Under the pieces are notes generated by a model. That model did not search any database. It was not told where the DNA came from and saw nothing but the letters and a program-made list of their open reading frames with translations. From the IMG/VR virus record IMGVR_UViG_3300012665_000884: a stretch of 64,000 nt of DNA, one strand, 5' to 3'. This document shows, piece by piece, positions 2,909 to 46,494 of the stretch (within the stretch, counting starts at the first letter, position 1; each line of letters begins with the position of its first letter). The stretch comes from an uncultured virus (IMG/VR IMGVR_UViG_3300012665_000884). Its lineage: Duplodnaviria > Heunggongvirae > Uroviricota > Caudoviricetes. The position numbers and the translations under genes are program-made.

Positions 2909-2914
2909 TACATT

Positions 2915-4946: not shown

Positions 4947-4971
4947 ACGATTCTCTCCCAAAGAAAAGTTT

Positions 4972-4996: not shown

Positions 4997-4997
4997 A

Positions 4998-6680: not shown

Positions 6681-6818
6681 TTATCGCCTCTGCGCTTGCG
6701 CTTGTTTTAATTTTTCGTTTTCTTGTTCCAAATATGCAGTCAACATTCCCACGTAGATACTTCTCTCCCATGGAACCATATTTTCTAACTCTGTCAAACT
6801 GTACTTGTGGTGTTGCAT
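6681..6818 (-). CDS. 51: gp51-like baseplate hub assembly module (missing from ORF track; possibly made as a -1 frameshift fusion to gp26)
   Basis: Translates MQHHKYSLTELENMVPWERSIYVGMLTAYLEQENEKLKQAQAQRR*; frame stays open upstream (NHYQTNFAL) to the end of gp26. Confidence 0.85.
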   Translation of the reverse strand: MQHHKYSLTELENMVPWERSIYVGMLTAYLEQENEKLKQAQAQRR

Positions 6819-6868
6819 CAATGCGAAATTCGTTTGGTAATGATTAGTTAGATTATCATAGCCAAACG

Positions 6869-7609: not shown

Positions 7610-7624
7610 AATAACTCCGAATAA

Positions 7625-8992: not shown

Positions 8993-9080
8993 ACTGTATT
9001 TATTACCGTTTATTTGTTATGTTTGCCATTAATACATATATTTTCTTCATAAAAGTGTTATAAGTAGGCTGTTGGGTTCT

Positions 9081-9530
9081 TCAGTTAATACCTAATTCTT
9101 TCTCTGTTAGGATTTGAAACTTCCATCCATGAGTATGACAGAATTCGTCAGCAGCCTTCCACTTCATTTGATTAATAGCGTAAGTTGCAGCCTCTGCTAA
9201 GAATCGTTTAGTTTTCTTCTTTTGTACAGGCTTCTGTGTCTGTGCGTATGGTTTTACTTCAATCACATAAGTCATAACTGCGCCATCTTTTTTCTGCACT
9301 TTAATGATGAAGTCAGGAAAGTATCTATGCATTCTATTGTCCACAGGCGATAAGTATGGAATAGCCAACTCCTCTGATGACCACCACACGATTCCTGGAT
9401 GGTCATCAAAGTACTTCATACAACGTAATTCCCACGAAGACCTGAAAATGATGTTCGTGGCATCGCCATTATATTTTGCTGGATTGTTAGGCTTAAACCT
9501 GCCTTTGTAGGTATTCTTTCCATATGACAT
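9081..9530 (-). CDS. 4: head completion protein gp4 (TnsA-like nuclease fold)
   Basis: YKGRFKPNNPAKYNGD..RSSWE..HRYFPDF..IEVKP..KWKAA. Confidence 0.92.
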   Translation of the reverse strand: MSYGKNTYKGRFKPNNPAKYNGDATNIIFRSSWELRCMKYFDDHPGIVWWSSEELAIPYLSPVDNRMHRYFPDFIIKVQKKDGAVMTYVIEVKPYAQTQKPVQKKKTKRFLAEAATYAINQMKWKAADEFCHTHGWKFQILTEKELGIN

Positions 9531-22328: not shown

Positions 22329-25300
22329 ATGACAACTCTATTCAATTACGACCCATATTACGATGATTTTGATGAAGATAAAAACTTCATGCGTGTTTTG
22401 TTCCGTCCCGGTTATTCGGTACAAGCACGTGAGTTAACACAATTACAAACAATCTTATCGAATCAAATCGAAAAGTTTGGTAACCACATTTTTAAAAATG
22501 GTAGTCCTATCATTGGTGGTAAAATTTCTTTGGATAAGAAAGCAAATTATATTATTTTGGAAAGTCAGTATAACAATACCGATATTGTTGCATCCGATTT
22601 TCTAGATAGAACGATTATTGCATATAACTCAACAAAAACTGTTCGTGCTAAAGTTATCGCAGTAGATACAACATCAACCACTCCTATATTGGTTGTAAAA
22701 TATCTGAGTGGTGATGTATTCTCAGCATCGGATGAGATTAAAGTGATGGGCGCAAACATTTTTGCGCAACTGAAATCGTCAGATGCTGTCGGTGGTTCAT
22801 TTGTTGCTAGTTTGCAAGAGGGCGTTTATTACTTTAAGGGTCAATTTGTCAAGGTTACACCACAATTCTTGATTGTGGAATTGTTTTATCGTCTTGGTCA
22901 AGGAACATCCACAGTAAACATTAAACCATCATATAAGATTGGTATCGAATTTACCGAGACTATTTTGGACGAAATTGATGATACATCATTGTTGGATCCA
23001 GCACAAGGCGCATTTAACTATCAAGCACCTGGCGCAAATCGTTTCCAAATTACAACATCGCTATCTAAGCGCACATTAAATTCTTCAGATACTTCAACGT
23101 TCTTCGAAATTGTACGTATCGTTGAAGATGTAAAGACTAAAGAAATTGATTATACAGAATATGCCGAGTTGGAAAAAACTATGGCACGCCGTACGCACGA
23201 TGAATCGGGCAACTACACAGTTGATCCATTCGTTATCTCTTTGGAAGAAGGTGATTCTGCCAACGGTAAGTTCGATGTTATTTTAGATCCGGGTAAAGCA
23301 TACGTTTCTGGTTACGAATTTGAAACAATTTCTCCAACAAAAATATCTATCGACCGAGCTAGACAAGTTGCTACAGCGAACAATTATGACCTTCCAACAA
23401 ACTACGAAAGTTCAGTTGTTTTAGATACTGTTCGTGGTACATTGGATATCACTACATTCCCACAACTTGATATCCACTCTGTGCCACACACAAACGTTAG
23501 TGTTGCAACATTAGCGCAATATAACTCAACAAAGATTGGTACAGTTCGTGCCGACATGATTCGTTATAATGATGCAACAAACAGTTTGTTGGGTACAACA
23601 CATTCGTTCAAGGTGAATACATTTGGTGCAAACACTTCACCAATCACAGGAACAATTCCATCAACGGGATCAAGTGCAACAACAATTAAGATACCGGCGG
23701 CATTCAATGGTTCATTGACCACTAATGCATACGCTAACATGTATTTTAGAATAACTGACGGCGGTGGTCTGACTGTTGCTCCTATACAAATTCTAAGTTC
23801 TAATACACTGACTATGAACTTGGCATCAGCTTTGCCTTTTCTTCCATCATCAAATACAATTTCTATCGAATCTGATTTCAGTAATGCAGAATCGCTTATC
23901 AGTAGTGATGGCACATTTCTTGCGTTTGCTGGTAACATTAATTCCGATTCAAAAGATGCGTTAGGTTTTGCTTCAATTAATGAACCAAAACGAACAGCAC
24001 TGATTTTTGAAACACCGACAGCGGCAATTAAAGAGAGTACGATTTCTAAACTCGACTTCTACGCAAGAAAATCATATACAAATAGAACAACTGATGCTGG
24101 TGGAGAAATTATCATCAACGCAGGTGGTACAGATACGTTCACATTCTCTGGAACTCCAGGTGTTATTAGTGATTCTCAAATTTTAGATAATATTATTTGC
24201 TTTGTGCGTAGTGATACTACTCCTAATGCTCCTTATAATATTGTGGCTAACACTACACTAAGTTTGGCAAATAATTTATATACAGTTACGGCAGTGTCTT
24301 CGACACAATTTAAAGTTAATCTTGGTGCCGCAGCTGCCAAAGTTGATCTATTGATTACAACAAAAGTAAATGATGCATATAATTCATCAACAGGATCAAC
24401 ACGTGGTAAGCAACTAATTCCATTAACAAGTGGTGCAGACTTACACGCAAAAGTTCCATATGAAATTAACACCGGCGATGTGTTGGATGCAGCCAACTCC
24501 GCTGGAGCAGTTACATATTGTGCCGCTGGTGCGGTGTTCACATCTATCGGCGCAACAAACTTTGACAATCTTCAAGCATTGCGTGATTTAAGAACGCCAG
24601 GTAAAGTGGTAAGTTTACAAGTTCCTGATGTGTATGAACTTGTTGGTATTTACGATTCGAAGAATTCTGTTGCCAACGTTTCAACCGCAATGCTTACTTC
24701 TGCGGCACACAACATCACTAGCAGTTACGATTTTGACAATGGTCATCGCAAAACTCATTATGACCACGCAACAATCAAATTGAAACGCGGTTATCCTGCT
24801 CCTACAGGACATGTGTATGTTCAATACAAGTACTTGAGACACATTGCCGCTCCAGCTACTGGTGGTAATGGACTATTCACAGTAGATTCATACCTACAAG
24901 CAGGCTCTAATTTCACATACGGAGATATTTCTAAATTTGCGAATGCTGAAGATAACAAGTTAACTTCACTCAGAGGTTCATTCGACTTTAGACCTACACG
25001 TGCTATTGCAGGTACGAATTTATCTGGTGCATTGAACCCAGAGCCATTGGAGCAAATCAATCTCAAATATAATTACTACTTGTCACGTATTGACCAAGTT
25101 GTCGTTAAGTCTTCAAAAGAATTCTCCATTATTACCGGCTCGTCCGCAGTTTCACCGATTGCTCCACCAGTCGATAGTAGAGATATGTTAATCTATACTC
25201 TGACTATTCCTGCTTATACAGAAACTATTAAAGACATTCGTGCAGATTTTAAAAATCACCGTCGTTATACGATGGCAGACATTAATGCATTTGAAGACAG

Positions 25301-28300
25301 AATCCGCGGTCTAGAATACTATGTTGCATTAAGCACATTGGAAAAAGATGCCGCATCAACTAAAGTTTTGGACGCTAACGGACTAGAGCGTAGTAAGTAC
25401 GGTATCTTGGTGGATAATTTCACTTCTAAAGATAATCAAGCAACAAAAGAAGAAGTTGGTTATGATAATAGAAACTTAATTTCTTCTGGCCAACTGTATC
25501 CTGCATCATTGATGCGTACAGATTTCAAGATGATTCCTTCTGTTTCGGCATCATCAGGAGCATTCCGTTTCGTTGGAACAGGCACAAAGAAGGTCATGAT
25601 GTTGTCATACACATCTGCCGAATTCGCTAAACAGCCATACGCAACTAAATCTTTACCTATCGCTAACGCAGTTTTTGCCGCATTCAAAGGTACAACTAAA
25701 TTGTACCCAGAATTCACCGGCGATGTTGACACAGGAACAACCGCTAAAGTTACTTTGAATTCACTCAAAGGATTGGACACAGCGTTCAACTTCATTAACA
25801 GTTCATTGAAATATGTTTCTGATAAAAATCCTACATGGAATTTGGACAAAGATAGTCCTTTTGCTCAAGTGGCGGATGCTCAATGGTATAAAACATTAAG
25901 AGAAACTGATACTGACAGGTCTAAAATTACCGTAGAAGCGTTGGGCGGTGGTTTCTTGGGCCATGTTGCACCCGTTAATGATAATACATATTTGACTGCC
26001 GGTGCCGAGTTAAAACAAAAACAAATTAGCACATCATCATCACAAGTGGATGTTGGCACATTTGTTACCGATTTAGCAATTCAGCCATACATGAAGCCTA
26101 AACAAATTCTGTTTAGTTCACAAGGAATGCGTCCAAGTACAGTGTTCTACAATTTCTTCGATGATGTTGCAGTCAACAAATATATTATTGTTCCTAACAA
26201 AGTTACTTTGAATACGACTTCTACATTAGTTGCTGGAGAATGTGTCCTAATTGCAAATACTATTTCCGATTTGGCAGCAAACTTAGCAAGTCTATTGTCT
26301 GGCGGAACATCATATGATCCAGCATTCGTTGTAGTCAGCGAAACTGGTTCAGCAAACGTTTCTATCGTGAACGAAACAGGCAAAACACTCACATCGAAAT
26401 ATGTTTATGGTTTAGATTCTGGTAATTATTTTACTGTTAGCACGGTGAATGACCATCGTTCTGGTGCTGGTAGAATTAGCTCCACAACAATTATTCTGCA
26501 ATCCGATGCATCATCTACAGATAATTACTATAACGGAAATACCATCAGTATTATTCACGCATCTGGTTCATCCGAGGGTATCGGTGAACAATTTACCATA
26601 AATGATTATGATGGCGCATCACGTACAGTAACTCTGTCTGGAACACCAACGACAACAGGATTGGTTGCATATAGTATTGGCACAAACAAGTCTAATAAAC
26701 TTGGTCAAGTTGGCGGTGCATTCTATATGCCAAAAGCAACTTTCCGTTCAGGTCAAAGAAACTTCCGTACAACAGAATCGTTCAACAACACATATGATGC
26801 GGATGCTATTTCTTTCTCAGATAAGACATATGTTTCTTCTGGAATGACAGCAAACAAAACAACACTTGTTGATACTGTGTTAAACGTTGATGTTGATTTT
26901 AAAGTTGTTGGAACACAAACAACAAATCGTTTAATTAGTTCTACTGTATCAGGATCAATCGTATTGGATAAATGGCGTCCTGATCCATTAGCACAGACAT
27001 TCTTTGTTGATCCACAGGTGTATCCATATGGCACATTTATGGAAAGCGTGGACTTATTCTTTAAGTCTAAGGATGACGAGAACATTCCTGTGACAGTTCA
27101 AATTCGCCCAACTGTCAACGCGGCACCATCATCGGATTATTGGTATCCAGAATCTGTGGTGGTAAAATATCCATCCGAAATTATTGTTTCTGAATCACCA
27201 AGTGTGACAGACACAGCAACACAAACCAATTTCAAATTTGATATTCCTGTATTCTTGAAGCCTGGTTTGTATGCGATGGTTGTTATTACAGATTCTCCAG
27301 ATTATGTTGTTTGGGAAGGCGAAAAAGGCGGAACAACCGCAAATAAAGAATATGTTGATAAACAACCGTTCATGGGCACATTATACAAATCACAAAACGC
27401 AATGGAATTTGTTCCATTCTTGAATGAAGATTTGATGTTCCGTTTGAATCGTTGCAAGTTTCCTACGACTTCAGCGACATTCGTTCTACAAAATGAGGCA
27501 CAAGGTGCAACATTTAATGTGGACAAATTCCGTCTATTAGAAACTTCGATTATTCCATCCGATTCTGTAACAAACGTTTCACATTCTATTTCCACTAAGA
27601 CAATAAGTGGTGTAAAAGAATCTTCGTATCGTGCCATTTCTCCTGGACAAACATATAATATGGCTTCAGATGATTTGTATGCCGTTGGATATCGCAGAAA
27701 GAAATTGGGCGCTCAAGACGACTTTACAATCAATATTGGAATGTCAACAACAAACGATGCAGTATCTCCTATCATTTCAGTTGAAAGTTTATTTTTAAAT
27801 GCGTGGGAAAACTTTATCGACAATGCAGAAATCAATACCGAAGATTTCACTATCGTTGTTCCTGGTTCTGGATATAGTAACAGTAACGTTGTGACTATCA
27901 CAAGCGCATCTGGTACTGGCGCCACCGCAAACTTGCAAGTTGATGCTAACGGTAATGTCCTAAGCGTTTACGTTTCTTCAACTGGCTCTGGATACACAGA
28001 CGATTTTGATATTTCATACTACACACATCCGACAACACCGGCAACTATTGTACTGAACAGTGAATATGATTCATCTGGCGGTCCATGTTTAGCCCGTTAC
28101 ATCACTAAGCCAATCACATTGGCTGACGGATATGATGCAGGTGATTTGCGTGTGTTCTTGGGTGCCAATAAGCCTGGTGTTTCTGAAGTTCTAGTATATT
28201 ACAAGTTGTTATCAGATACTGATGGAACTCCATTCGCGGATAGACCATATCAACAAATGGTATGTATTAATCCAACAGTCACACCATCATTGAACGATTC

Positions 28301-28481
28301 TTTCCGTGATTATGAATATCGTCCATCAGCAACATTGAATCAGGCATCATACACATCAACAACTGGTGTTGTTTACAATACATTCAAGACATTCTCAATT
28401 AAGATTGTTTTGACTTCAAGTGATCCTGCGATTGTTCCTTCAGTTAAAGATTTGCGTATTATCGCTACACCAGCAGAATGA
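22329..28481 (+). CDS. very large virion structural protein (DUF4815/VrlC-like)
   Basis: PYYDDFDEDKNFMRVLFRPGYSVQARELTQLQ, RRTHDESGNY, DPLAQTF, C-terminal FSIKIVL..VKDLRIIA. Confidence 0.85.
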   Translation: MTTLFNYDPYYDDFDEDKNFMRVLFRPGYSVQARELTQLQTILSNQIEKFGNHIFKNGSPIIGGKISLDKKANYIILESQYNNTDIVASDFLDRTIIAYNSTKTVRAKVIAVDTTSTTPILVVKYLSGDVFSASDEIKVMGANIFAQLKSSDAVGGSFVASLQEGVYYFKGQFVKVTPQFLIVELFYRLGQGTSTVNIKPSYKIGIEFTETILDEIDDTSLLDPAQGAFNYQAPGANRFQITTSLSKRTLNSSDTSTFFEIVRIVEDVKTKEIDYTEYAELEKTMARRTHDESGNYTVDPFVISLEEGDSANGKFDVILDPGKAYVSGYEFETISPTKISIDRARQVATANNYDLPTNYESSVVLDTVRGTLDITTFPQLDIHSVPHTNVSVATLAQYNSTKIGTVRADMIRYNDATNSLLGTTHSFKVNTFGANTSPITGTIPSTGSSATTIKIPAAFNGSLTTNAYANMYFRITDGGGLTVAPIQILSSNTLTMNLASALPFLPSSNTISIESDFSNAESLISSDGTFLAFAGNINSDSKDALGFASINEPKRTALIFETPTAAIKESTISKLDFYARKSYTNRTTDAGGEIIINAGGTDTFTFSGTPGVISDSQILDNIICFVRSDTTPNAPYNIVANTTLSLANNLYTVTAVSSTQFKVNLGAAAAKVDLLITTKVNDAYNSSTGSTRGKQLIPLTSGADLHAKVPYEINTGDVLDAANSAGAVTYCAAGAVFTSIGATNFDNLQALRDLRTPGKVVSLQVPDVYELVGIYDSKNSVANVSTAMLTSAAHNITSSYDFDNGHRKTHYDHATIKLKRGYPAPTGHVYVQYKYLRHIAAPATGGNGLFTVDSYLQAGSNFTYGDISKFANAEDNKLTSLRGSFDFRPTRAIAGTNLSGALNPEPLEQINLKYNYYLSRIDQVVVKSSKEFSIITGSSAVSPIAPPVDSRDMLIYTLTIPAYTETIKDIRADFKNHRRYTMADINAFEDRIRGLEYYVALSTLEKDAASTKVLDANGLERSKYGILVDNFTSKDNQATKEEVGYDNRNLISSGQLYPASLMRTDFKMIPSVSASSGAFRFVGTGTKKVMMLSYTSAEFAKQPYATKSLPIANAVFAAFKGTTKLYPEFTGDVDTGTTAKVTLNSLKGLDTAFNFINSSLKYVSDKNPTWNLDKDSPFAQVADAQWYKTLRETDTDRSKITVEALGGGFLGHVAPVNDNTYLTAGAELKQKQISTSSSQVDVGTFVTDLAIQPYMKPKQILFSSQGMRPSTVFYNFFDDVAVNKYIIVPNKVTLNTTSTLVAGECVLIANTISDLAANLASLLSGGTSYDPAFVVVSETGSANVSIVNETGKTLTSKYVYGLDSGNYFTVSTVNDHRSGAGRISSTTIILQSDASSTDNYYNGNTISIIHASGSSEGIGEQFTINDYDGASRTVTLSGTPTTTGLVAYSIGTNKSNKLGQVGGAFYMPKATFRSGQRNFRTTESFNNTYDADAISFSDKTYVSSGMTANKTTLVDTVLNVDVDFKVVGTQTTNRLISSTVSGSIVLDKWRPDPLAQTFFVDPQVYPYGTFMESVDLFFKSKDDENIPVTVQIRPTVNAAPSSDYWYPESVVVKYPSEIIVSESPSVTDTATQTNFKFDIPVFLKPGLYAMVVITDSPDYVVWEGEKGGTTANKEYVDKQPFMGTLYKSQNAMEFVPFLNEDLMFRLNRCKFPTTSATFVLQNEAQGATFNVDKFRLLETSIIPSDSVTNVSHSISTKTISGVKESSYRAISPGQTYNMASDDLYAVGYRRKKLGAQDDFTINIGMSTTNDAVSPIISVESLFLNAWENFIDNAEINTEDFTIVVPGSGYSNSNVVTITSASGTGATANLQVDANGNVLSVYVSSTGSGYTDDFDISYYTHPTTPATIVLNSEYDSSGGPCLARYITKPITLADGYDAGDLRVFLGANKPGVSEVLVYYKLLSDTDGTPFADRPYQQMVCINPTVTPSLNDSFRDYEYRPSATLNQASYTSTTGVVYNTFKTFSIKIVLTSSDPAIVPSVKDLRIIATPAE

Positions 28482-28717
28482 CAAATTATCTAAAAGTTGA
28501 AGGTACCAATTTAGTTAAAGATGCTAGAACGGGAGCCTTGTTAATGACAGGGCGTTCCGCTTTGGCTGAAAATGAAGCCAGAAAAAAATTGGCTCAAAGA
28601 ATAAATGGTAAGAATGATGAGATAAATAACTTAAAATCTCAGGTTGATAGTTTATCGTCAGATATGCAGGAAATTAAATCACTATTAACCCTATTGTTGA
28701 AACAGAGTAAAGAATAA
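28478..28717 (+). CDS. small coiled-coil virion protein
   Basis: 79 aa, KVEG..LVKD..TGA, C-terminal heptads; translationally coupled. Confidence 0.75.
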   Translation: MTNYLKVEGTNLVKDARTGALLMTGRSALAENEARKKLAQRINGKNDEINNLKSQVDSLSSDMQEIKSLLTLLLKQSKE

Positions 28718-30645
28718 TGTCAATTTCAAACATCACAAGAACAAATACAGTTGATGAATGGCGCATCCAGACGAACCTGGCAGCTGCCGAACTTAACCAA
28801 TTAGAGACAGGAGATTATGATAAAATCTCAGGTAACTTTAACATTAAAGATACCGCAAACGTAGTTATCACATCTACTGGTACAGCACTTCAAGTTTCGA
28901 ATACTGCTCTATTTTCAACTGCCGTTATTATTGGTAAAGAACTTAGTCTTGGCGCACAAGAAAGTGCTACAGGTAACTTAGGTGTCGGTGGAACAACTTC
29001 CATTTACGGTACAGGCACAGGTTTGTATGTTGCTAATAACGTAATTTCTAATGGTAGTCTTGTTGTTAAGAATAGTATTGTTACTTCAAACGTAACCGTA
29101 AATTCTAATGTTGTTGTAGTTGGTACTGCTAATATCGGATATCTTGGAGTATCGAACACTGGTGTGTTCGGCAAATCAGTTACTATTGGTACATCTGCAA
29201 CAGTAGGAACAACTTTAGATGTTACTGGCAACACAACATCAGGAAACTTATATACAGCTAACGCAACACAGACAGGTTCATTGCGTGTTGGAACATGGGC
29301 ACAAATTGGCGATACCATTGTTGTAACTGCAAATACTGTTACTGGCAATTTATATGCCAATAATAGTATTGTCGCTGATAATGCAAGAATTACGAATAAC
29401 GTTACAGCATCTCATATTACTGCAAACGTTGTAGGCGATAACGCAAGAATTACAAATAACGTTACAGCATCTCATATCACAGCAAACGTTGTTGGTGATA
29501 ATGCAAGAATTACGAATAACGTAAGTGCTTCCCATGTCTTGGCAAACGTTGTTGGTGAAAATATTAGAATTACTGCAAATGGTACATTCAGCGAAACAAC
29601 AGCAACAACAATCAATGCTACGAATGCACGTATCACAGGAAACGCAAATACATTAAATATTTTAGTTACAGATACTGCCAATATTTGGAATCTGAGGGTC
29701 AACACTAATGCCGCTATACAGGGCACAATTGTTGCAACAGGAAATGGTACTTTCGGCAACGTTAATACATCAAATGCGGTTAGTGCTGGTACGATTAGAA
29801 CTACAGGCCGCGCAGATTTTGGCGGAGCAGTCACTGCACCATCAATAGAAACTCCAGCAGGTACAGGTGATGTGACTGTTGGTGGTAAATTGACAGTTAC
29901 AGGCGATTTTGTATTGAGTGGTGATATTGTTTATGACACTGATATTTTGACTGTCAGTTCGATCACTCCTATTACAACTACTGGTGCTGGTTACTTCGGT
30001 GTTTTTAGAGGTAACACAACTGGTGGTGTTGCGGGTCATAACGGTAGTTCCAACTCTAATGCCAACGCATATATTCGTTGGAGTGCTACTGCAAACAATT
30101 GGCAGATTCGTGATGTATTCAATAGTGATTCTGCAACTTCATATTCCAAAGTTCTTACTGCTAATCTGATTACTGACAGTGCAACAACAACAAGTTCATC
30201 ATTGATTGCTAGTGCTTCGGCAGTTAAGACTGTGAATGATGCTACAGTTAAGTTGAATCCTGTTGGACCACAAACAATCACAAACAACGTTGAAGTTCGT
30301 GGATACACTAAATCAAACGGATTTATATCCGTACAACAAACAGTTACGCCAGCAACAACTACAAATTTGGACTTGGCGACATATGATAATTTTATTATCA
30401 CACTAGATAAAAATATAACATTTACCGTAAGTAACTTAGCGACCAAGATTGGTAGTTCTGGAATTATTGTTTTAAGACAAAACGGCACAGGCGGTTGGTC
30501 ATTCACGAAAGCGTCAGAAATGAAATCGCCTTTGGGTGGTGCGACAATTGCACAACAAACCGCAGCAAGCACAACATCCATAATTTCTTATTATGTTGTT
30601 GATTCGTCAACAATGTTAATTTCTTATCTGGGCAATTTTGCATGA
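28717..30645 (+). CDS. fibre-like structural protein
   Basis: NTVDEWRIQTN N-terminus, beta-rich T/N/V/G repeats, C-terminal globular domain. Confidence 0.7.
   Translation: MSISNITRTNTVDEWRIQTNLAAAELNQLETGDYDKISGNFNIKDTANVVITSTGTALQVSNTALFSTAVIIGKELSLGAQESATGNLGVGGTTSIYGTGTGLYVANNVISNGSLVVKNSIVTSNVTVNSNVVVVGTANIGYLGVSNTGVFGKSVTIGTSATVGTTLDVTGNTTSGNLYTANATQTGSLRVGTWAQIGDTIVVTANTVTGNLYANNSIVADNARITNNVTASHITANVVGDNARITNNVTASHITANVVGDNARITNNVSASHVLANVVGENIRITANGTFSETTATTINATNARITGNANTLNILVTDTANIWNLRVNTNAAIQGTIVATGNGTFGNVNTSNAVSAGTIRTTGRADFGGAVTAPSIETPAGTGDVTVGGKLTVTGDFVLSGDIVYDTDILTVSSITPITTTGAGYFGVFRGNTTGGVAGHNGSSNSNANAYIRWSATANNWQIRDVFNSDSATSYSKVLTANLITDSATTTSSSLIASASAVKTVNDATVKLNPVGPQTITNNVEVRGYTKSNGFISVQQTVTPATTTNLDLATYDNFIITLDKNITFTVSNLATKIGSSGIIVLRQNGTGGWSFTKASEMKSPLGGATIAQQTAASTTSIISYYVVDSSTMLISYLGNFA
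29377..29556 (+). repeat. three tandem 60-bp coding repeats (DNARITNNVTASHITANVVG)
   Basis: Directly visible near-identical repeats. Confidence 0.9.
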
Positions 30646-31499
30646 TAAATCTTGCCTTGTTTGGCGGTGATTATAGTTGGAATACTGAAGTAACAACCAC
30701 TAGAAGTACTACAACACAATGGTCAACAAGTCAAAGTACAACTACATCTTGGTCCACAAGTCAAAGCACAACTACATCTTGGACAACTAACCGTTCAACC
30801 ACAGTTTCTTGGTCGACAGCTTGGAATACAAGCCAAGCAACGACAACATCGTGGAATACAAGTCGTGCAACAACTACAACTTGGACAACCAGCCAAGCAA
30901 CGACAACTTCTTGGACAACAAGTAGAGGTACAAGTCAGATTACGTCCACAAGTTGGACAACGAGCCAAGCAACTACAACTTCTTTCACGACAAGTAGGGG
31001 CACAAGTCAAAGCACAACCACATCTTGGACAACTTCTTGGTCAACTGCATATCAAACATATGTTGATGAGAGTTACGTTGAAGAGGGATATATTCAGGCT
31101 TTGGCATCACGAAGTACTAGCCGAGGAACAAGTCAAAGTACCACAACTTCTTGGACAACTTCTTTCACCACAAGTCAGAGTACCACAACTTCTTGGACAA
31201 CTAGCCAGAATACAACAACTTCCTGGACAACTTCTTGGACAACAAGTCAGAGTACCACAACTTCTTGGTCAACAAGTCAGAGTACCACAACGACATGGAC
31301 GACTAGCCAAAGTACAACTACGACTTGGTCAACAAGCCAAATCACATCATCGACATGGACAACTTATTGGACAACTAGCCAAAGTACCACTACGACATGG
31401 ACGACTAGCCAAAGTACCACTACGACATGGACGACTAGCCAAAGTACCACAACTTCTTGGATCACTATAAGACTAACGAACTTCTATCAAGGTTATTAA
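30642..31499 (+). CDS. Thr/Ser/Trp repeat protein (W-T-T-S-Q-S-T-T-T-S 10-mers) with mirror-symmetric arms
   Basis: 285 aa dominated by Thr/Ser; ATGA overlap with upstream gene. Confidence 0.85.
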   Translation: MINLALFGGDYSWNTEVTTTRSTTTQWSTSQSTTTSWSTSQSTTTSWTTNRSTTVSWSTAWNTSQATTTSWNTSRATTTTWTTSQATTTSWTTSRGTSQITSTSWTTSQATTTSFTTSRGTSQSTTTSWTTSWSTAYQTYVDESYVEEGYIQALASRSTSRGTSQSTTTSWTTSFTTSQSTTTSWTTSQNTTTSWTTSWTTSQSTTTSWSTSQSTTTTWTTSQSTTTTWSTSQITSSTWTTYWTTSQSTTTTWTTSQSTTTTWTTSQSTTTSWITIRLTNFYQGY

Positions 31500-31514
31500 T
31501 TATGTTATGTGACT

Positions 31515-32255
31515 ATGAAAAAGCCTTTTTATAAAGCGATAATGTTGGTGTTGGCGTCAGACAATGCACCAATTTATAAAGAACTAAGAAAAGTCTATCA
31601 AGCATATTTGCATGAAAATGCAAATATAAAAGTGTTTATGGTTTATGGTGATGGTACAGAGTTTGATGCAACTGAGGATGACCTGATTTATCCTGATGTT
31701 CCTGAGAACTATTATCCTGGAATGATTACAAAAACAATCAAAGCCATACAACATATTGATGAAAATTATGATTATGATTTTTTGATTCGAACCAATATTA
31801 GTACATTCTGGGATTTTGATAGACTGCTAAAGAGACTTGATATACAACCCTTAGAAAATTGTTTTACTGGCACAATCAGAGGCTGCAAGCATAAGGGTGA
31901 GGCATCACCACAATATATCTCTGGTACAAATTTAGTCCTCAGTAGGGACTTGGTTGTAAAAATGATTTCCCACAAAGATGAATTGTTAGGTTGGGATTTA
32001 CCTGAAGATTGGGCAATGAGTAAATTCTTTATAGATTCCGGTTTAAAACCTAGAGCAAGTCTTCCTGGTGCTATACACTTTATGGAACAATTCAAAAGTG
32101 TTGATGAACATCCAATACTATCGGAAATAGAAATTGCCAGAAAAATGAATCATGACAATTTCAGGATTAAAAATAATCATGATAGATTAAATATTGATGT
32201 TGCTGTGGCAAAAATACTTCTCCGAGAGTATTATGGAAAGACTATAAATAAATGA
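31515..32255 (+). CDS. putative glycosyltransferase (GT-A, GT31/fringe-like)
   Basis: KTIKAI..YDYDFLIRTNISTF..YISGT..LSRD..EDWAM resembles galactosyltransferase-like folds; start may be GTG 31509. Confidence 0.55.
   Translation: MKKPFYKAIMLVLASDNAPIYKELRKVYQAYLHENANIKVFMVYGDGTEFDATEDDLIYPDVPENYYPGMITKTIKAIQHIDENYDYDFLIRTNISTFWDFDRLLKRLDIQPLENCFTGTIRGCKHKGEASPQYISGTNLVLSRDLVVKMISHKDELLGWDLPEDWAMSKFFIDSGLKPRASLPGAIHFMEQFKSVDEHPILSEIEIARKMNHDNFRIKNNHDRLNIDVAVAKILLREYYGKTINK
32243..32250 (+). promoter_or_regulatory. T4-type late promoter
   Basis: Perfect TATAAATA upstream of the 32280 ORF. Confidence 0.7.
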
Positions 32256-32279: not shown

Positions 32280-33167
32280 ATGGAAATGTTTAACAAAGCG
32301 GCAATGAATGAGAGAATTGGTGATAAAATTGAAAAGAGTTCGACACTCTATCACCTTAAAGAAGTTGAAAAGTATTTCTTGAATGCGGTGAAGAAATATA
32401 AAATCGAAGCATCATACGATGTAATTGCAAACGAACTCCCATATTTTAAGACATTCAATTATACGGAGTGGGCACATAGTTTCATTATTCATCCTCTCCA
32501 ACAAGATTTGAGAATGCAACAGATGCGTGATGCATACAACGACAATGCTGAGGTTAAAGTCGATTATGTACAATATTTTTCAGACAAGATTACAAATAAA
32601 CAATCCAACAAGTATACTCATTTGGTGAAAGACGAAACGAATGCTCCAAGGGAACATTTGGTGGTTCTTGTTGGTTCCAATAAATTAAAAGAACGTGTGT
32701 GTCTAAACAAGTTGATGTGGATTTCCAAAAAATATGAAGATGATGTTTACTTTAAACCACATCCGATGACAACACACGCATTGATTGGTGAATTAAAAGA
32801 TATCCTTGGTGAAGATAAAGTCTTACACCGAGATGCTGACATGTATGAATTTCTGCTAGAAGCAAAAACAATCCATACAACCACAATGACCGAATCTTTG
32901 GTATATGCAGTTTGTCTGGACAAAGAAGTTGATCCTGTGGATGTATACAATAAAGCCGAACAAGGATCATTCTATCATATCAACAAGTTCTTATTTGAAG
33001 AACAAAATCCTAAAGAGTGGATCAATCGTACATTTAATAGTCCAAAATGCGGAATTATCAACCCAGAAGTTGATTCTGATTGGAAAAACAAGATAGATTC
33101 ATATTTGGAATATATAAATACTGTAAGAAATTCATATAAAGATAAGTATATCTGGAGTAAAAAATAA
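32280..33167 (+). CDS. putative GT-B sugar transferase (KpsS/KpsC or sialyltransferase-like HP motif)
   Basis: VYFKPHP followed by D.YEFL.EA..I.T..TES...A..LDKEV; SD AGGAG. Confidence 0.5.
   Translation: MEMFNKAAMNERIGDKIEKSSTLYHLKEVEKYFLNAVKKYKIEASYDVIANELPYFKTFNYTEWAHSFIIHPLQQDLRMQQMRDAYNDNAEVKVDYVQYFSDKITNKQSNKYTHLVKDETNAPREHLVVLVGSNKLKERVCLNKLMWISKKYEDDVYFKPHPMTTHALIGELKDILGEDKVLHRDADMYEFLLEAKTIHTTTMTESLVYAVCLDKEVDPVDVYNKAEQGSFYHINKFLFEEQNPKEWINRTFNSPKCGIINPEVDSDWKNKIDSYLEYINTVRNSYKDKYIWSKK
33113..33120 (+). promoter_or_regulatory. T4-type late promoter
   Basis: Perfect TATAAATA upstream of 33168. Confidence 0.65.
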
Positions 33168-33602
33168 ATGGCACTAACAACTAGATCCGGCAAAGGCTCA
33201 CCATTAACAACCGCTGAATTGGACGCCAATTGGGGAATGTTCATTCGAACTGACACATCTGGTGCAATCTCAGGCTCATTAACTGTGACTGGTGATATCA
33301 CAGCATTCTACACATCCGATGAAAGATTGAAGAGTAAAATTGAAGTGATTCAAGACGCTTTGGCTAAAATTCGCCAAATTGATGGAGTCACTTTCGGTTG
33401 GAACGAACTTGTTCCCGAGAAAGATATGAATGTTCGTGAAGCTGGTGTATTGGCTCAACAAGTACAAAAAATTCTTCCTGAAGTTGTTACTGAAAGAAGT
33501 GATGGCTATTTGGCAGTTCACTATGAGAAAATGATTTCCATCTTGATTCAAGCAATTAAAGAGTTGGATGCTAAAGTGGATCAATTAGAGAAGAATAAAT
33601 AA
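33168..33602 (+). CDS. small protein with peptidase S74 intramolecular chaperone domain
   Basis: GDITAFYTSDERLK..GVLAQQVQKILPEVV..VHYEKM..LIQAIKEL. Confidence 0.85.
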   Translation: MALTTRSGKGSPLTTAELDANWGMFIRTDTSGAISGSLTVTGDITAFYTSDERLKSKIEVIQDALAKIRQIDGVTFGWNELVPEKDMNVREAGVLAQQVQKILPEVVTERSDGYLAVHYEKMISILIQAIKELDAKVDQLEKNK

Positions 33603-34183: not shown

Positions 34184-37100
34184 GTGGCAAATACAGTAAT
34201 TCTATTAAAATATTCTGTTGTAACAGAAAAACCAACATCACTTAATACTGCTGAACCAGCATATTCTGATGTAACGGATGTCCTATGGATTGGAGACAAT
34301 ACTGGAGTTGTTGCTATTGGCGGTAAAGCATACACACAAATTGTTGATGCTAGAACGGCAAATAATACATCAAACACATTAGTGTTACGCAATACATCAG
34401 GAAATTTTGCCGCGAATGTCATTACTGCAAATTTAACTGGTCGATTTACTAATGCAAGAAATATTGCACTATCTGGCAAAGTTACAGGTAATGCAGATTT
34501 TGACGGTTCACAAAACATAACAATTACCACAGAACTGTTAGACACAGCAGTTACTCCTGGCAGTTATGGTTCAACCACAAAAATTCCAACATTCTCTGTT
34601 GATGTTGATGGTCGTTTGACATATGCAGCCAACGTTGATGTTGCTACAACATTCAGTTATGCCGCCGACAACGGCACAGGAAGTTTAAGTCTTCTTACAG
34701 ATTCGTTCATCATTAAAGGTGGTGACGGCATTTCTTCTGTTGGCGTTGATGCCAACAACACAGTCATCCTTGATGTTGATAGTACTGTAGTTAAGACAGA
34801 CCGTTCTTCACAGACTATCAATGGTGATATTGCTATTACAGGTAACTTGATTGTTTCAGGTAATACAATCACACAAGACGTTGAAACAATTCGCACCGAA
34901 GATTCGTTGATTCAGTTAGCCAATAATAATCTTGGCGATGCACTTGACATTGGTTTCTATGGTCAATATACAAACAGCGGTACAAAGTATGCTGGTTTGA
35001 TCCGTGATGCATCCGATGGCAATTTCAAATTATTTGTTGGCGAAACTACTGATCCAACATCAAACGTTGTATCATATGGCACAGAGAATCGTGCAACATT
35101 AGAAACTAACATTACTGGCGGTAATGTACATACCTTATACTCTGCGGTTTTGACAACAGATGGTGGTACAGGAATTAGAACATATGCAACTGGTGATTTT
35201 ATTTACGCCAGTGGCACAGACACATTAAGCAAATTAACTAAGCCATCAGTACCGTCCATTCTTTCTATGGACTCATCGGGTGTTCCAACTTGGGTAGATA
35301 CACTATCTGTTGCTGAAGGTGGTACAGGAAATACAACATTCACTTCTAATCAAGTTGTGATTGGTAATGGCACAAGTGCATTGAGTACGTTGGTATCATC
35401 AACACAAGGACACATCCTTCAAGTTAATGGTTCTGGACAAGCATCTTATGGACACTTGAATGGTAATACAACCATCATTCAACTAAAACGATATCCTGAT
35501 TATGGTGTAATTCCAGCGGCGGCTAATTTGTCTTACGGCGAATTGGCGTTGAACTACAATGACGGTAAGTTGTACTATAAGAATGCTGATGGCACTACAG
35601 TCAAGATGGTTAAGACTGAGGCTGATCCTGGTGGCAATACAACTGAAGTACAGTTCAATACAAATTCGGACTTTGATGGATCAGCAAACTTTACATATAC
35701 AAAAGCGACAGATACATTAAATATACTGAATTTAAATGTGTCCAACAATGCTGAAGCGCAACATATTATCGTTCACGATAAACTGTATGCTGGTATTGCA
35801 ACACAATCTGCTACACCGCTACCGAACTTAATTGCACAGTTTACAAGTAACTCGTCAACATACACTCAAGTTAACCAACAAAACATTTCTCCTAACGGCT
35901 CGGCAGATTTTGTTATCACAGCAGACGTAGGTGACGATGAAAAATTCTATACCGATCTTGGTATGGCTGGCAGTCAATATAACTTCTATGAAGGTTACGA
36001 AACACCATTTGAGCCATTAACTGGTTACTTCCTTGTTCAGGGTAATACCGGACAAGTTGGTGGTAACATGATTATTGGTACCACAACACCAAGTACAAAC
36101 ATTAGATTCTTGGTTGGTGGTTTTGAGAATGCAAACGTCATTCTAAATTTAGATGAATCTGGTTTAGATATTGTTCGTGGTGAATTGACAAGCGCAACAA
36201 CAACTCGCATTTTCAACGTAGCAAACGCCGCATTTGGCCAAGCAAACGCCGCATTTGGCCAAGCAAACAATTCTTTTGGAGTTGCCAATTCAGGTTTCGC
36301 TCAAGCAAACAATGCGTTCGGTCATGCCAACAATTCATATAATCGTGCGAACTCCGGATTCTATCAAGCAAATATTGCTTATGATAGTGCGAACTCTGGA
36401 TTCTACCAAGCAAATATTGCTTATGCACATGCGAATGCCGCCTTTGATGCGGCAAACGCTAAACTAATTTTCTCAAACATCTCAGCTAACGGCACAACGT
36501 TGGCAGCAGATGGTGGTGGCGATACACTCACAATTACGGCAGCAACGTCAAATGGTATTTTCATTAATGCCAACTCCGCAACAGATAGTTTTGATATTGG
36601 TCTTCTTGTAACTGGAGTAAGCGCTGGTTATTATGGTGCCGCTGATAAGATTGCAACTTTCAATGTTGGGACTGACGGTAGAATTATCTCCGCATCAAAT
36701 GTCCAGATTGATGTTGCAACAGCACAAAAAGCATACAATCAAGCAAATAGTGCTTTTGATGCCGCCAACACAGCAAATAGTTTCAATAGAGCAAACACTG
36801 GCGCCAGCATTATCCAAACAACACTTGCTTATCAAGCAAACGTTGGTGCTGGACGTATTGCAGATACACTAGCGTACCAAGCAAACGTTGGCGCTGGAGA
36901 TATTGTTGTAACAAATGCATATCAAGCAAACGTTGGCTCTGCCAGAATAGCAGATAGTGCTGCCGCACAAGCAAACACGGGTGCGGCATTAATTAGTGCC
37001 AAGTCATACACAGATACTGCTAATACAGATTTAAAGAACTACACTGACGTTCTGGTATCGACAGCTAATACAAATCTCAAAAATTACACAGATGTTACTG

Positions 37101-39865
37101 TATCAACTGCTAACACAAATCTCAAGAATTACGCTGACGTTACGGTATCAACTGCTAACACAAATCTCAAGAATTATGTTGACACTGCTAATACAGATTT
37201 AAAGAATTACGCTGACGTTACGGTATCAACTGCTAACACAAATCTGAAGAATTATACAGATGTTACAGTATCAACTGCTAACACTAATCTGAAAAATTAC
37301 ACAGATGTTACAGTATCGACAGCTAACACAAATCTTAAAAATTATACAGATGTTCTCGTATCCACTGCTAACACTAATTTAAAGAACTATGTTGATGTAG
37401 GTGTTGCAACAGGTCAAGCAAACGTTGGATCATCGTTTATTGCAACAACACTTGCGTATCAAGCGAACGTAGGTGCAACCAGAATTGCAACGTTCAATCA
37501 TGCCGATAATGCATACAACAAAGCAAACGTTGGCGGTGATTTCTCAGGTTTTGTTAACGTTGCTTCAAACGTTAGAGTTGGTTCATACATTGATTTAAAT
37601 ACTGCTCCAAGTAAACCTACGAATGTTGAGGGTAGAATATTCTATGATAATGACCAAAAAGCATTAAGTTATTATAACGAATCCAACATGACTTTACAGA
37701 TTGGTCAAGAATCTGTTGTTCGTGTTTGGAACAACACAGGTTCTACCATATCTGATGGTAAAGCAGTTTACATTAATGGATCATCATCATCTAATGGCTT
37801 CCCTAGTATTGCATTGGCAAACTCTGCGATATATGAATCTTCAGAAGTTATTGGTCTAACAACTACTGTTATTCCTCACACAGGTTATGGATATGTAACA
37901 TCATCAGGTAAAGTTAATGGACTAGATACGCACTTAATCACAGAAGGTGAAGAAATCTACTTGTCTGCTACTGACCCAGGTGGTTGGACAACAACTCCTG
38001 CTGCCTCACCTGCCGCACCAGTTCGTTTGGGTATTGTTGCAAATTCTGATTTGACTGATGGATCAATTTTAGTTGATATTACATTCCGCGAAGGTGTAAA
38101 TAAAACAACTGGTGCTATTCTATTTGCATTCGATAATACTATTCATGAAGACCCATCAAACCTTTACTATGACCACGCAAATCATAGATTGGGTATTGGT
38201 ACAAATCTACCAACAGCAAACTTGCACGTTTCTGGTGATGCACTATTTACTGGTAACGTACAGATTCAAGGTAATCTAATTATCAGTAACGCACAATCAA
38301 TTTCCACAACAACACTAGCCGTTGGTGGTAATTTAATTGTAATGAATGATACCACTGTAGGAATTCCTGTATCCAATGCAGAGATTCGTGTTAACCGTGG
38401 AAGTTCAGCGAACGTTTATATTAAATGGGACGAGACACAAGAAGAGTGGATTATGTACGAAGGTACATATACCTCTGGTCACATTCTACATTCAGAGAAA
38501 ACGGCACACACATGGGCAGAGTATACTGCCATGCCAACTTATGAAAAGTTGACACACCCTATTGGTGCTGACTTGGCGAATTCCATTAATGAAATCGCCA
38601 AGACTGCATTTAATCAGGCTAACACAGGATTAGGAATCGCAGTTGCTGGTTTTGGACAAGCGAACTTGGCATATGATGCCGCTAACACAGCAGTAACAAC
38701 AGGTCAAGCCAACGTAGGTGCTGGACTGATTGCTACCACAAACGCTTATCAAGCCAACGTAGGTGCTGGATTAATTACAGCTAAGTCTACATCGGAAGCA
38801 AACGTAGGTGCTGGATTAATCACTACCACAAATGCTTATCAAGCCAACGTAGGTGCTGGATTAATCACAGCTAAGTCTACATGGGAAGCCAATGTTGGCG
38901 TTGAAGTTGCCGCACGTGAAGCTAACGTAGGTGCTGGATTAATTACTACCACAAGTGCTTATCAAGCAAACGTAGGTGCAGGATTAATTACAGAAGTTGC
39001 CGCACGCCAAGCAAACGTTGGTGCTGGACTAATTACTACAACACTTGGTTATCAAGCAAACGTAGGTGCAGTAAATATTGGACTGAATAGTGAAATCACT
39101 AACAGACAGGCAAACGTAGGCGCAGGATTAATTACTACCACAAGTGCATATCAAGCCAACGTTGGCGCAGGATTAATCACCGCTAAATCTACATCGGAAG
39201 CAAACGTTGGTGCAGCCAGAATTGCTGTTACAAATGCTTATCAAGCAAACGTTGGTGCAGTAAATATTGCGTTGAACAGCGAAATCACTAACAGACAGGC
39301 AAACGTTGGTGCTGGATTAATTACTACCACAAGTGCATATCAGGCAAACGTAGGTGCTGGATTAATCACATCTAAATCTACATCAGAAGCAAACGTTGGT
39401 GCAGGACTAATTACAGTAACTTCAGCTTATCAAGCAAACGTTGGTGCAGTAAATATTGCAAAGGTTAATAAATCTGGTGATGTAATGTCTGGCACATTGC
39501 AAGCAGAAGCATTTATTTCCAACACAAGTATCTCTGTTGGCGGAACAAATTATGCCGCACTATCATCAAATACATTCACCACAAGTTCAACATCACAAGT
39601 CTCGGTAGATTCTTTTAGTACATCTACATATAGAGGTGCAAAATATTTTGCACAAATGACCTCTGGTTCAAGTTATCACATTATTGAGTTGAATGTTGTA
39701 CATGACGGCACAACAGTTTACTTAGCACAATACGGCGAAATATTTACAGGTTCATCATTAGGAACATTTAATGCATCTATCACATCAGGTGTTTTGAATT
39801 TGTTGTTTACTGCAACAAACTCTATTACGACTGTAAAATTGATGCGAACATCCATTGTGGTATAA
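34184..39865 (+). CDS. very long tail-fibre/adhesin-like protein with coiled-coil repeat blocks
   Basis: 1893 aa from GTG; IQLKR..LSYGELALNYNDGKLYYK module; 7-, 11- and 15-residue repeats; C-terminal DSF..YRGAKY..HDG..QYG domain. Confidence 0.8.
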   Translation: MANTVILLKYSVVTEKPTSLNTAEPAYSDVTDVLWIGDNTGVVAIGGKAYTQIVDARTANNTSNTLVLRNTSGNFAANVITANLTGRFTNARNIALSGKVTGNADFDGSQNITITTELLDTAVTPGSYGSTTKIPTFSVDVDGRLTYAANVDVATTFSYAADNGTGSLSLLTDSFIIKGGDGISSVGVDANNTVILDVDSTVVKTDRSSQTINGDIAITGNLIVSGNTITQDVETIRTEDSLIQLANNNLGDALDIGFYGQYTNSGTKYAGLIRDASDGNFKLFVGETTDPTSNVVSYGTENRATLETNITGGNVHTLYSAVLTTDGGTGIRTYATGDFIYASGTDTLSKLTKPSVPSILSMDSSGVPTWVDTLSVAEGGTGNTTFTSNQVVIGNGTSALSTLVSSTQGHILQVNGSGQASYGHLNGNTTIIQLKRYPDYGVIPAAANLSYGELALNYNDGKLYYKNADGTTVKMVKTEADPGGNTTEVQFNTNSDFDGSANFTYTKATDTLNILNLNVSNNAEAQHIIVHDKLYAGIATQSATPLPNLIAQFTSNSSTYTQVNQQNISPNGSADFVITADVGDDEKFYTDLGMAGSQYNFYEGYETPFEPLTGYFLVQGNTGQVGGNMIIGTTTPSTNIRFLVGGFENANVILNLDESGLDIVRGELTSATTTRIFNVANAAFGQANAAFGQANNSFGVANSGFAQANNAFGHANNSYNRANSGFYQANIAYDSANSGFYQANIAYAHANAAFDAANAKLIFSNISANGTTLAADGGGDTLTITAATSNGIFINANSATDSFDIGLLVTGVSAGYYGAADKIATFNVGTDGRIISASNVQIDVATAQKAYNQANSAFDAANTANSFNRANTGASIIQTTLAYQANVGAGRIADTLAYQANVGAGDIVVTNAYQANVGSARIADSAAAQANTGAALISAKSYTDTANTDLKNYTDVLVSTANTNLKNYTDVTVSTANTNLKNYADVTVSTANTNLKNYVDTANTDLKNYADVTVSTANTNLKNYTDVTVSTANTNLKNYTDVTVSTANTNLKNYTDVLVSTANTNLKNYVDVGVATGQANVGSSFIATTLAYQANVGATRIATFNHADNAYNKANVGGDFSGFVNVASNVRVGSYIDLNTAPSKPTNVEGRIFYDNDQKALSYYNESNMTLQIGQESVVRVWNNTGSTISDGKAVYINGSSSSNGFPSIALANSAIYESSEVIGLTTTVIPHTGYGYVTSSGKVNGLDTHLITEGEEIYLSATDPGGWTTTPAASPAAPVRLGIVANSDLTDGSILVDITFREGVNKTTGAILFAFDNTIHEDPSNLYYDHANHRLGIGTNLPTANLHVSGDALFTGNVQIQGNLIISNAQSISTTTLAVGGNLIVMNDTTVGIPVSNAEIRVNRGSSANVYIKWDETQEEWIMYEGTYTSGHILHSEKTAHTWAEYTAMPTYEKLTHPIGADLANSINEIAKTAFNQANTGLGIAVAGFGQANLAYDAANTAVTTGQANVGAGLIATTNAYQANVGAGLITAKSTSEANVGAGLITTTNAYQANVGAGLITAKSTWEANVGVEVAAREANVGAGLITTTSAYQANVGAGLITEVAARQANVGAGLITTTLGYQANVGAVNIGLNSEITNRQANVGAGLITTTSAYQANVGAGLITAKSTSEANVGAARIAVTNAYQANVGAVNIALNSEITNRQANVGAGLITTTSAYQANVGAGLITSKSTSEANVGAGLITVTSAYQANVGAVNIAKVNKSGDVMSGTLQAEAFISNTSISVGGTNYAALSSNTFTTSSTSQVSVDSFSTSTYRGAKYFAQMTSGSSYHIIELNVVHDGTTVYLAQYGEIFTGSSLGTFNASITSGVLNLLFTATNSITTVKLMRTSIVV
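37019..37392 (+). repeat. 45-bp coding tandem repeats (ANTNLKNYTDVTVST)
   Basis: About 9 visible copies, one shortened to 11 aa. Confidence 0.9.
38703..39450 (+). repeat. imperfect ~45-bp coding repeats (YQANVGAGLITTTSA)
   Basis: More than 15 ANVG units; related units also at about 36830-36940. Confidence 0.9.
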
Positions 39866-46485: not shown

Positions 46486-46494
46486 AGAAAATAG

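Follow-up and report, generated by a model that had tools for sequence, protein, structure and literature searches.

Can a protein be a palindrome, one half of its chain written as the counterpart of the other? The question is raised by a gene at positions 30642-31499 (plus strand) of a 64,000-nucleotide stretch of DNA from an uncultured virus (IMG/VR record IMGVR_UViG_3300012665_000884; Caudoviricetes), which is called the window here. The gene's ATG overlaps the stop codon of an upstream gene of 642 amino acids (aa), and its own 285-aa product is built from few ingredients: 113 Thr, 63 Ser, 24 Trp and 21 Gln, with Thr and Ser making up 62% of the chain and with Cys, His, Pro and Lys absent altogether. 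Its repeat unit is W-T-T-S-Q-S-T-T-T-S (10 aa), a decapeptide with no other occurrence within the window, and each unit consists of a four-residue module that begins with an aromatic residue followed by a six-residue module that begins with Gln or Arg. Parsing the protein into such modules leaves five additional four-residue modules in each half, and the DNA beneath is a direct 30-nucleotide repeat with additional 12-nucleotide pieces. An earlier note on this DNA had proposed that the two halves form a single antiparallel ribbon, with aromatic residues of one arm opposite Gln or Arg of the other. Our best reading is that the protein is probably a self-zipping antiparallel beta zipper stalk in the tail-fibre apparatus of a T4-like phage, laid out as follows.

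30642..31499, plus strand: gene of the mirror-repeat protein, 285 aa, Thr/Ser-rich (open reading frame, composition, mirror scan)
30642..30701, plus strand: N-terminal base segment, aa 1-20 (MINLALFGGDYSWNTE...), matching the family N-terminal motif M..GF..K.EW.T
30702..31052, plus strand: N arm, aa 21-137, of 10-aa units and five extra 4-aa modules (module parse, hairpin layout)
31053..31109, plus strand: tip, aa 138-156 (QTYVDESYVEEGYIQALAS), with the mirror axis at E147; motif common to 549-aa and 831-aa relatives (FQNYVATGYMAVNYV)
31110..31469, plus strand: C arm, aa 157-276, mirroring the N arm with aromatic and Gln/Arg residues swapped (mirror scan, shuffles)
31470..31496, plus strand: C-terminal base segment, aa 277-285 (RLTNFYQGY), equivalent of the family end R.T.FY(A)

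A near-identical copy (99%; 7 nucleotide and 2 aa differences) lies in viral contig L028. Long open frames in other frames also run through the repeat gene, one of 201 aa at 30865-31470 (plus strand) and one of 71 aa at 30795-31010 (minus strand); both look like by-products of its repetitive composition, not genes.

The palindrome is expressed as a mirror sum, S, at which residue i faces residue S-i. All 24 aromatic:Gln/Arg pairs that the earlier note had listed at i+j=294 were recovered. At the same sum the N-terminal base segment lies opposite the C-terminal one (Y11/Q283, W13/F281), and Y11/Q283 raises the count to 25 pairs, drawn from 36 aromatic and 29 Gln/Arg residues; the runner-up sum, 304, gives 17. 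W57 and W239 do lack a partner of this kind within residues 21-273, as had been pointed out, but they are not the only ones, Y242 and the tip residues Y140, Y145 and Y150 being unpartnered too. Together W57 and W239 sum to 296, or S+2, a rule that holds for 8/8 unpartnered Phe pairs in the 831-aa relative. The proposal that paired residues share one strand face also stood: every lattice marker is at an odd position, 57 of the 61 aromatic or Gln/Arg/Lys/His markers in the arms fall on a single residue parity, and lattice spacings are 4 or 6, which gives the two-residue periodicity of a beta strand. Pairs on this odd face are confined to 33 T:T, 16 Q:W and 5 R:W, with one each of F:Q, F:R, R:Y, V:W and S:W. 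The even face, variable in composition and rich in Ser, has 19 S:T, 14 S:S and 9 T:T, its remaining pairs containing Ala, Asn, Gly or Ile save for a single Q:S and a single S:Y.

Part of this mirror pattern is a trivial consequence of periodicity. Any perfect array of 10-aa units that puts W at 0 and Q at 4 has a W:Q mirror sum, so that about 20 pairs are expected, and 20 are indeed left once the extra modules are removed from the 285-aa protein. What periodicity does not account for is that the five extra modules of each arm stand in mirrored places, an Arg-type insert in one arm facing a Trp-type insert in the other. When the ten extra modules were re-inserted at random with the repeat grammar kept, the observed 24 lattice pairs were reached in 7/20,000 trials, and shuffling the order of units within the arms reached 25 pairs in 0/2000.

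Relatives carry the argument further. Homolog searches of 5.8 billion and 1.84 billion proteins gave 27, 20 and 68 matches, every one an unannotated metagenomic or viral protein. We define from them a mirror-arm Thr/Ser decapeptide family, typified by P0016 (which matches phrog_30374), whose members have two arrays of aromatic-x-T-S-polar-S-T-T-T-S/T units; typically, these two repeat arms surround a variable domain of 60-110 aa with a GGYTYYRG-like motif. At the N-terminal end of family members a hydrophobic/Gly segment precedes an aromatic residue, and at the C-terminal end stands R-x-T-x-F/Y-Y. Both ends occur in the 285-aa protein, which begins MINLALFGGDYSW... and finishes ...IRLTNFYQGY where relatives read MSWFINGIKEW.../...RTTNFYA, the N-terminal likeness being loose.

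The earlier note had asked whether changes in arm length are compensated between the arms of homologs, and they are. In two alignable subfamilies, with arm ends anchored on flank motifs and with one protein without an anchor and five truncated proteins left out, the N arm is longer than the C arm by exactly 1 residue in 12/12 and 11/11 full-length proteins (23/23 overall, arms of 67-87 aa). Anchored arms measure 67/77/85/87 aa in the first subfamily and 77/79/81/87 aa in the second, while the centre, at 73-89 aa, varies independently of them. Differences of only two residues (85 vs 87, 79 vs 81) are compensated as well, and in two related proteins an 8-residue unit stands at mirrored places in both arms. 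Both subfamilies insert their arms into a domain that the same chain forms from its first and last ~45 residues. A cruder measure based on Thr/Ser zones, for which 44 proteins were set aside as single-zone, fragmentary or not Thr/Ser-rich, gave a correlation between arm lengths of r=0.92 and a median C/N ratio of 0.97 across 67 two-armed proteins. Finally, the best mirror sum equals protein length (L) plus 8-11 in 35/39 free-standing relatives of 171-1786 aa, from which it follows that the two chain ends always meet; the 285-aa protein, with S=294 and L=285, has a difference of 9 and so falls within the family range of +8 to +11.

Long single-chain relatives in viral contigs preserve the register over far greater distances. 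Those of 549 and 831 aa share with the 285-aa protein the tip motif (FQNYVATGYMAVNYV against YQTYVDESYVEEGYIQ) and the C-terminal FY end, and further examples have 388, 596, 668 and 1786 aa. Their mirror counts are given below.

549-aa relative: best mirror count 48, next-best sum 37
831-aa relative: best mirror count 67, next-best sum 41
1786-aa relative: best mirror count 125, next-best sum 74
668-aa relative: best mirror count 49, next-best sum 21
596-aa relative: best mirror count 30, next-best sum 13
388-aa relative: best mirror count 24, next-best sum 10

Mirror axes in these proteins lie 4 to 12 residues beyond mid-protein. In the 1786-aa member (L024, 897-6257) the axis falls at residue 898.5, mid-protein being 893, between arms of ~890 residues. 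For none of the six was the observed count reached by unit shuffles (0/2000 each), with observed counts and shuffle means of 48/20, 67/24, 122/37, 46/18, 30/11 and 24/10; the standard deviation for the 1786-aa relative (observed 122, mean 37) was 5.7. A scan for local axes within the giant regular arrays was discarded as uninformative, periodicity producing peaks everywhere.

Nor need both arms belong to one chain. Seven loci hold two adjacent large Thr/Ser-rich genes (544-1360 aa each) with one antiparallel cross-protein register per pair.

L006 split pair, 2194-5829 and 5869-8997: 209 pairs, shuffle mean 59 (max 76)
L010 split pair, 1511-4960 and 5020-7944: 187 pairs, shuffle mean 49
L022 split pair: 183 pairs, shuffle mean 48
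L012 split pair: 85 pairs, shuffle mean 33
L005 split pair: 52 pairs, shuffle mean 33
L021 split pair: 59 pairs, shuffle mean 32
L011 split pair: 57 pairs, shuffle mean 23

At each locus the observed count was reached in 0/500 shuffles, and the mirror sum lies near the length of the second protein. Because the first chain begins like the family N-terminus and the second ends like the family C-terminus, these pairs resemble hairpins cut at the tip. The first, outgoing chain bears an extra distal domain, Peptidase_S74 in some loci and Hint-like in others. Matches to Peptidase_S74 reached 22.2 bits for the isolated C-terminus of L005a (cut-off 22), 24.6 bits for P0091 and 18-19.6 bits for three whole proteins; the Hint-like ends had sub-gathering matches to Intein_splicing (E=1.4e-4) and Hint_2 (E=0.005). 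Single-arm proteins P0001-P0011 share the Hint-like domain and are first chains of split forms; a mirror scan inside them returned tied sums and no axis.

What would such a protein be doing in a phage? The window is a T4-like structural region, with genes for gp59, gp32, baseplate wedge, sheath, portal and terminase, and within it the repeat gene occupies a conserved cassette that runs from a fibre C-terminal domain through the repeat gene or genes to phrog_26179, both flanks being present here.

30358..30642, plus strand: C-terminal ~95-aa domain (aa 548-642) of the 642-aa fibre-like protein (gene 28717-30645; tblastn)
31509..32255, plus strand: GT31-like (Galactosyl_T/Fringe-like) glycosyltransferase candidate, 248 aa (Atlas features 0.98; predicted-structure template-modelling score 0.72-0.86)
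32280..33167, plus strand: phrog_26179 protein, 295 aa (PHROG E=2.8e-33)
33168..33602, plus strand: stand-alone Peptidase_S74 (intramolecular chaperone) protein, 144 aa (Pfam E=6e-17; PHROG tail-fibre C-termini)

By tblastn, the fibre C-terminal domain stands upstream of the repeat genes in 19/27 related viral loci, directly so where coordinates were compared, and recurs in gp40 of Caulobacter phage Lullwater, a protein annotated as tail fibre. A phrog_26179 homolog follows the repeat genes in 22/27 loci, 19 of them at E<=1e-47. The same order appears in Lullwater itself, a cultured, T7-like phage, in which gp40-gp42 (L031 4350-6843) encode the tail fibre, a 215-aa Thr-rich aromatic protein without a clear mirror (11 vs 9 pairs) and a phrog_26179 relative. 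The phrog_26179 protein has an invariant K-x-H-P motif and an Atlas score of 0.94 to viral clusters, 60% of them with PF05159 (KpsS-type Capsule_synth). Its Pfam match to A-2_8-polyST is non-significant (E=0.31), and its profile found no match among PDB sequences beyond a chance hit (E=0.24). It is possibly a KpsS/polysialyltransferase-like enzyme, or an assembly factor of the fibre. Relatives of it are also found in Caulobacter phage Cr30, alongside Lullwater, and in KVP40-like Vibrio phages. The 248-aa candidate, directly downstream of the repeat gene, has no Pfam match and was recognised by its Atlas language-model features and by predicted structure, both leading to Galactosyl_T/Fringe clusters. 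The 144-aa protein is little more than its Peptidase_S74 domain, lies two genes downstream and is not fused to the repeat protein here.

A mechanism can be proposed from these observations. As the sequence shows, the chain runs out along its N-terminal 10-residue beta-strand units, turns at the short Tyr/acidic tip (E147) and returns along the C-terminal array. Residue i would then be beside residue 294-i, give or take two. On one face each Trp, Phe or Tyr would adjoin a Gln or Arg of the other arm amid an all-Thr surface; the other face would be Ser-rich and variable. As the strands would have to stay in register, an indel of 4 or 2 residues should be tolerated only with a matching change in the other arm, which would create a palindrome at the protein level and leave stalk length freely adjustable in evolution. 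Across relatives, arm lengths run from ~40 to ~890 residues, and the tip would be variously a short loop, a variable domain of 60-110 aa or a break between two genes. The aromatic:Gln/Arg ladder, the Tyr/acidic tip at its axis and the insufficiency of slippage alone, all put forward earlier, draw support from the compensation among homologs, from arms of up to ~890 residues and from the composition of the two faces. N and C termini would meet at the base, which probably docks onto the upstream fibre protein at its conserved C-terminal domain. The whole would serve as an accessory fibre or adhesin stalk.

The earlier note had envisaged a single ribbon of ~40 nm, a figure that presumes full extension. 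An oligomer, and not one monomeric ribbon, is suggested by the two-gene split forms and by the fusions to Peptidase_S74. The S74 domain on the outgoing arm of split forms is the main reason to favour a trimer, in which three hairpins would build a shaft of six strands that encloses the Thr/Trp face. In those relatives the outgoing arm appears to be fused either to this trimerisation chaperone or to a Hint-like self-cleaving domain. According to passages in PMC12143355, S74 domains aid oligomerisation of trimeric fibres and self-cleave, and PMC11936462 reports that Thr-rich peptides favour beta-hairpins. The Ser/Thr surface of the stalk may be O-glycosylated by products of the adjoining glycosyltransferase-like genes; with the GT31-like and phrog_26179 genes next door, glycosylation of the Ser-rich face is a reasonable idea.

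Several points weigh against a self-zipping stalk. The mirror rule fits an intrachain hairpin and interchain antiparallel pairing alike, and the split forms are an instance of the latter. The best register of the L012 pair leads the next by a small margin (85 vs 74), and the Peptidase_S74 and Hint matches lie at or below curated cut-offs. At the window locus S74 exists solely as the separate 144-aa gene, the GT31-like gene was not found in the other 27 related loci, and the relatives are all metagenomic. In the very regular 549-aa relative, a parallel same-type score of 44 comes close to the mirror score of 48. A two-stranded ribbon of the 1786-aa relative would extend for 300 nm, which is hard to credit, so that the geometry may be coiled or multi-stranded. 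Structure prediction, proposed earlier as a check, gave weak results. AlphaFold2 run on the 285-aa protein without an alignment was uninformative (mean predicted local confidence, pLDDT, 33.6). For homolog P0016 (56 aligned rows) it placed a central domain at pLDDT 83-88 between arms modelled as long strands paired within the chain, residues 9-30 and 43-63 against 162-182 and 195-216, with boundary sums all equal to 225; arm pLDDT is only 31-63, and this register is 2 residues off the 227 of the sequence rule. With the P0016 model as query, Foldseek had no PDB match at E<=0.001, and the highest Z from VIA-align wide was 3.6. Whole-model rows aligned the arms to long beta-hairpins (pore stems, phi29 tail), and the tip domain (residues 70-154) had matches at Z<=3.0 only, all within noise.

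The rival that survives best, improbable as we judge it, is an antiparallel homo-oligomer in which extended chains zip the N arm of one to the C arm of an oppositely oriented neighbour, with a two-fold axis at the tip segment and a rod twice as long. It satisfies the i+j rule equally, and the seven split gene pairs imply exactly such interchain pairing of N arm with C arm. However, the chain ends always meet (S-L of 8-11 in 35/39), the two anchored subfamilies insert their arms into a domain made from ~45 terminal residues of the same chain, a fibre requires one anchored end, and the low-confidence AlphaFold2 monomer model pairs the arms within one chain.

A mucin-like spacer fares much worse. 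Here the arms would be disordered, heavily O-glycosylated Thr/Ser linkers, comparable to the Ser-rich repeats of Gram-positive adhesins and making no contact with each other, and repeat turnover would have produced the mirror incidentally. The 62% of Thr and Ser and the GT31-like gene with a possible second transferase directly downstream are what such a spacer would lead one to expect, and a weak match to a serine-rich NCBIfam model (15.8 bits) can be cited in its favour, but the cut-off of that model is 650 bits. We regard it as very unlikely, for it leaves unexplained the residue-exact compensation in 23/23 proteins, the mirrored modules, the one-parity lattice and the registers that cross between genes, and, the DNA repeats being direct and not inverted, turnover would copy their order and not mirror it.

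Just as doubtful is a parallel beta-solenoid, or an in-register stack, with ladders of aromatic residues like those of beta-helical fibres and antifreeze proteins. Regular, short, Thr-rich units with T-x-T patterns would suit it, as would the parallel score of the 549-aa relative. The antiparallel opposite-type score is nevertheless the higher in 7/7 proteins, often about two-fold (67 vs 44, 124 vs 58, 49 vs 19), ten residues are too few for a coil of a single chain, and the extra modules follow a mirrored and not the same order.

Could the palindrome instead reside in the nucleic acid? The gene contains 0 inverted DNA repeats (seed 9); its mirror register shows a base complementarity of 0.35 (z=2.0), which does not surpass that of other in-frame registers, and in 5/5 genes tested the mirror-register value (z 1.3-2.0) was equalled or exceeded at unrelated in-frame registers, which makes the mirror a property of the protein. 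An origin or maintenance of the gene as an inverted DNA or RNA repeat, with the protein mirror incidental, is thus rejected and retains almost no credibility, for although ACN (Thr) and AGY (Ser) codons are partly self-complementary and in-frame complementarity of ~0.35 exceeds the mean of 0.24 across all registers, TGG (Trp) is not the in-frame complement of CAA, CAG, CGN or AGR, and relatives keep the pattern with Phe against Arg, Lys or His.

How, then, does the proposed self-zipping stalk compare with systems already described? By analogy, the closest is the out-and-back, six-stranded needle of T4 gp37, the long tail fibre, whose receptor-binding part lies mid-sequence according to passages in PMC7291167. 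The out-and-back register of the 285-aa protein is supported by its sequence, while a trimer would be a likeness by inference only. Unlike gp37, it is made of 10-aa Thr/Ser/Trp units, belongs to a family with arms of such varied length, and is encoded by a separate small gene and not at a fibre C-terminus. The gp37 needle is lined with His-x-His metal-binding motifs, and with 0 His the 285-aa protein has no such sites. It has no gp37-type match in Pfam (E<=0.01) or PHROG, and no gp37 entry was among the matches listed in fold searches with the P0016 model, whose arms are of low confidence.

Thrombospondin type-1 repeats, invoked by the earlier note, are three-stranded, disulfide-bonded modules of ~60 aa with a Trp-Arg ladder. 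Here, too, aromatic and long polar or cationic side chains alternate on one face of antiparallel strands, but the protein has 0 Cys, two arms of ~120 aa, mostly Gln in place of Arg and no Pfam TSP_1 match, so the likeness goes no further than analogy. Serine-rich repeat adhesins of Gram-positive bacteria likewise have Ser/Thr-rich repeats flanking a binding domain, with glycosyltransferase genes nearby. Their two repeat regions differ greatly in size and are regarded as glycosylated spacers in an extended state, whereas the arms of the 285-aa protein's relatives are mirrored and residue-equal. The NCBIfam model concerned is NF033849, and no C-terminal LPXTG cell-wall anchor was found in the 285-aa protein, which ends FYQGY. 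In the antigen I/II stalk of oral streptococci, an alpha helix is wrapped by a polyproline helix; there, as proposed here, two repeat regions that flank a distal domain pair into a long stalk that presents it, but the composition of the 285-aa protein, its even module lengths and its lack of Pro indicate beta strands. Tail fibres with S74 domains resemble the split relatives, which bear S74 at the distal end of the outgoing arm. Shafts of S74 fibres are parallel triple beta-helices and not mirror-paired arrays, and the PF13884 domain is absent from the 285-aa protein itself. The protein thus has no defining sequence feature of the gp37 needle or of any other known family.

Searches for the family in existing resources were equally barren. 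Pfam (E<=0.01), PHROGs and NCBIfam gave nothing meaningful for the 285-aa protein, a phage genome collection gave no megablast match to the 4.9-kilobase region and no tblastn match to the protein (a low-complexity filter may hide some), and full-text literature searches brought up no paper on the mirror-arm family or on a mirror-symmetric Thr/Trp fibre repeat among those listed. The exact matching of the two arms in relatives, over lengths of ~40 to ~900 residues, points to an undescribed self-zipping fibre stalk. The general principle may be called a "protein stem": arrays of even-length Thr/Ser modules that zip antiparallel through a ladder of aromatic against Gln, Arg, Lys or His residues, accept compensatory indels much as an RNA helix accepts compensatory base changes, set fibre length from ~15 nm to hundreds of nm, occur fused or split, are finished by self-cleaving S74 or Hint domains and may bear O-glycans from phage transferases. 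For this broader, undescribed assembly principle our confidence and our doubt are about equally balanced.

Should the self-zipping reading be right, phages would possess a new way to build fibres, with stalk length set by the number of matched repeat modules and with neighbouring residues recorded in the sequence. It would also be a rare natural case in which protein contacts can be read from indel covariation alone, and would give protein design a beta-zipper scaffold that is simple and programmable. Marine viral contigs carry the family widely, with proteins of up to 1786 aa and gene pairs of >2200 aa, all unannotated. In T4-like marine phages, in which we know of no description of virion glycosylation, it connects fibre genes with glycosyltransferase-like ones. 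The family is of interest for host access and host recognition by uncultured marine phages.

Elsewhere in the window, two giant structural-module proteins are encoded on the plus strand to either side of the repeat locus, one of 2050 aa at 22329-28481, with DUF4815 and a match to phrog_358, and one of 1893 aa at 34184-39865, with no family match. Among the baseplate genes, 9081-9530 (minus strand) encodes a protein with a TnsA-like endonuclease N-terminal domain (E=1.8e-21) and may be a mobile nuclease gene. Three tandem paralogous genes for collagen-like tail fibres of ~780 aa, with S74-type ends, occupy 41808-48885 (plus strand), and G+C content, ~0.38 in the rest of the window, is 0.46-0.48 at 42-46 kilobases and 0.34 at 46-48 kilobases.

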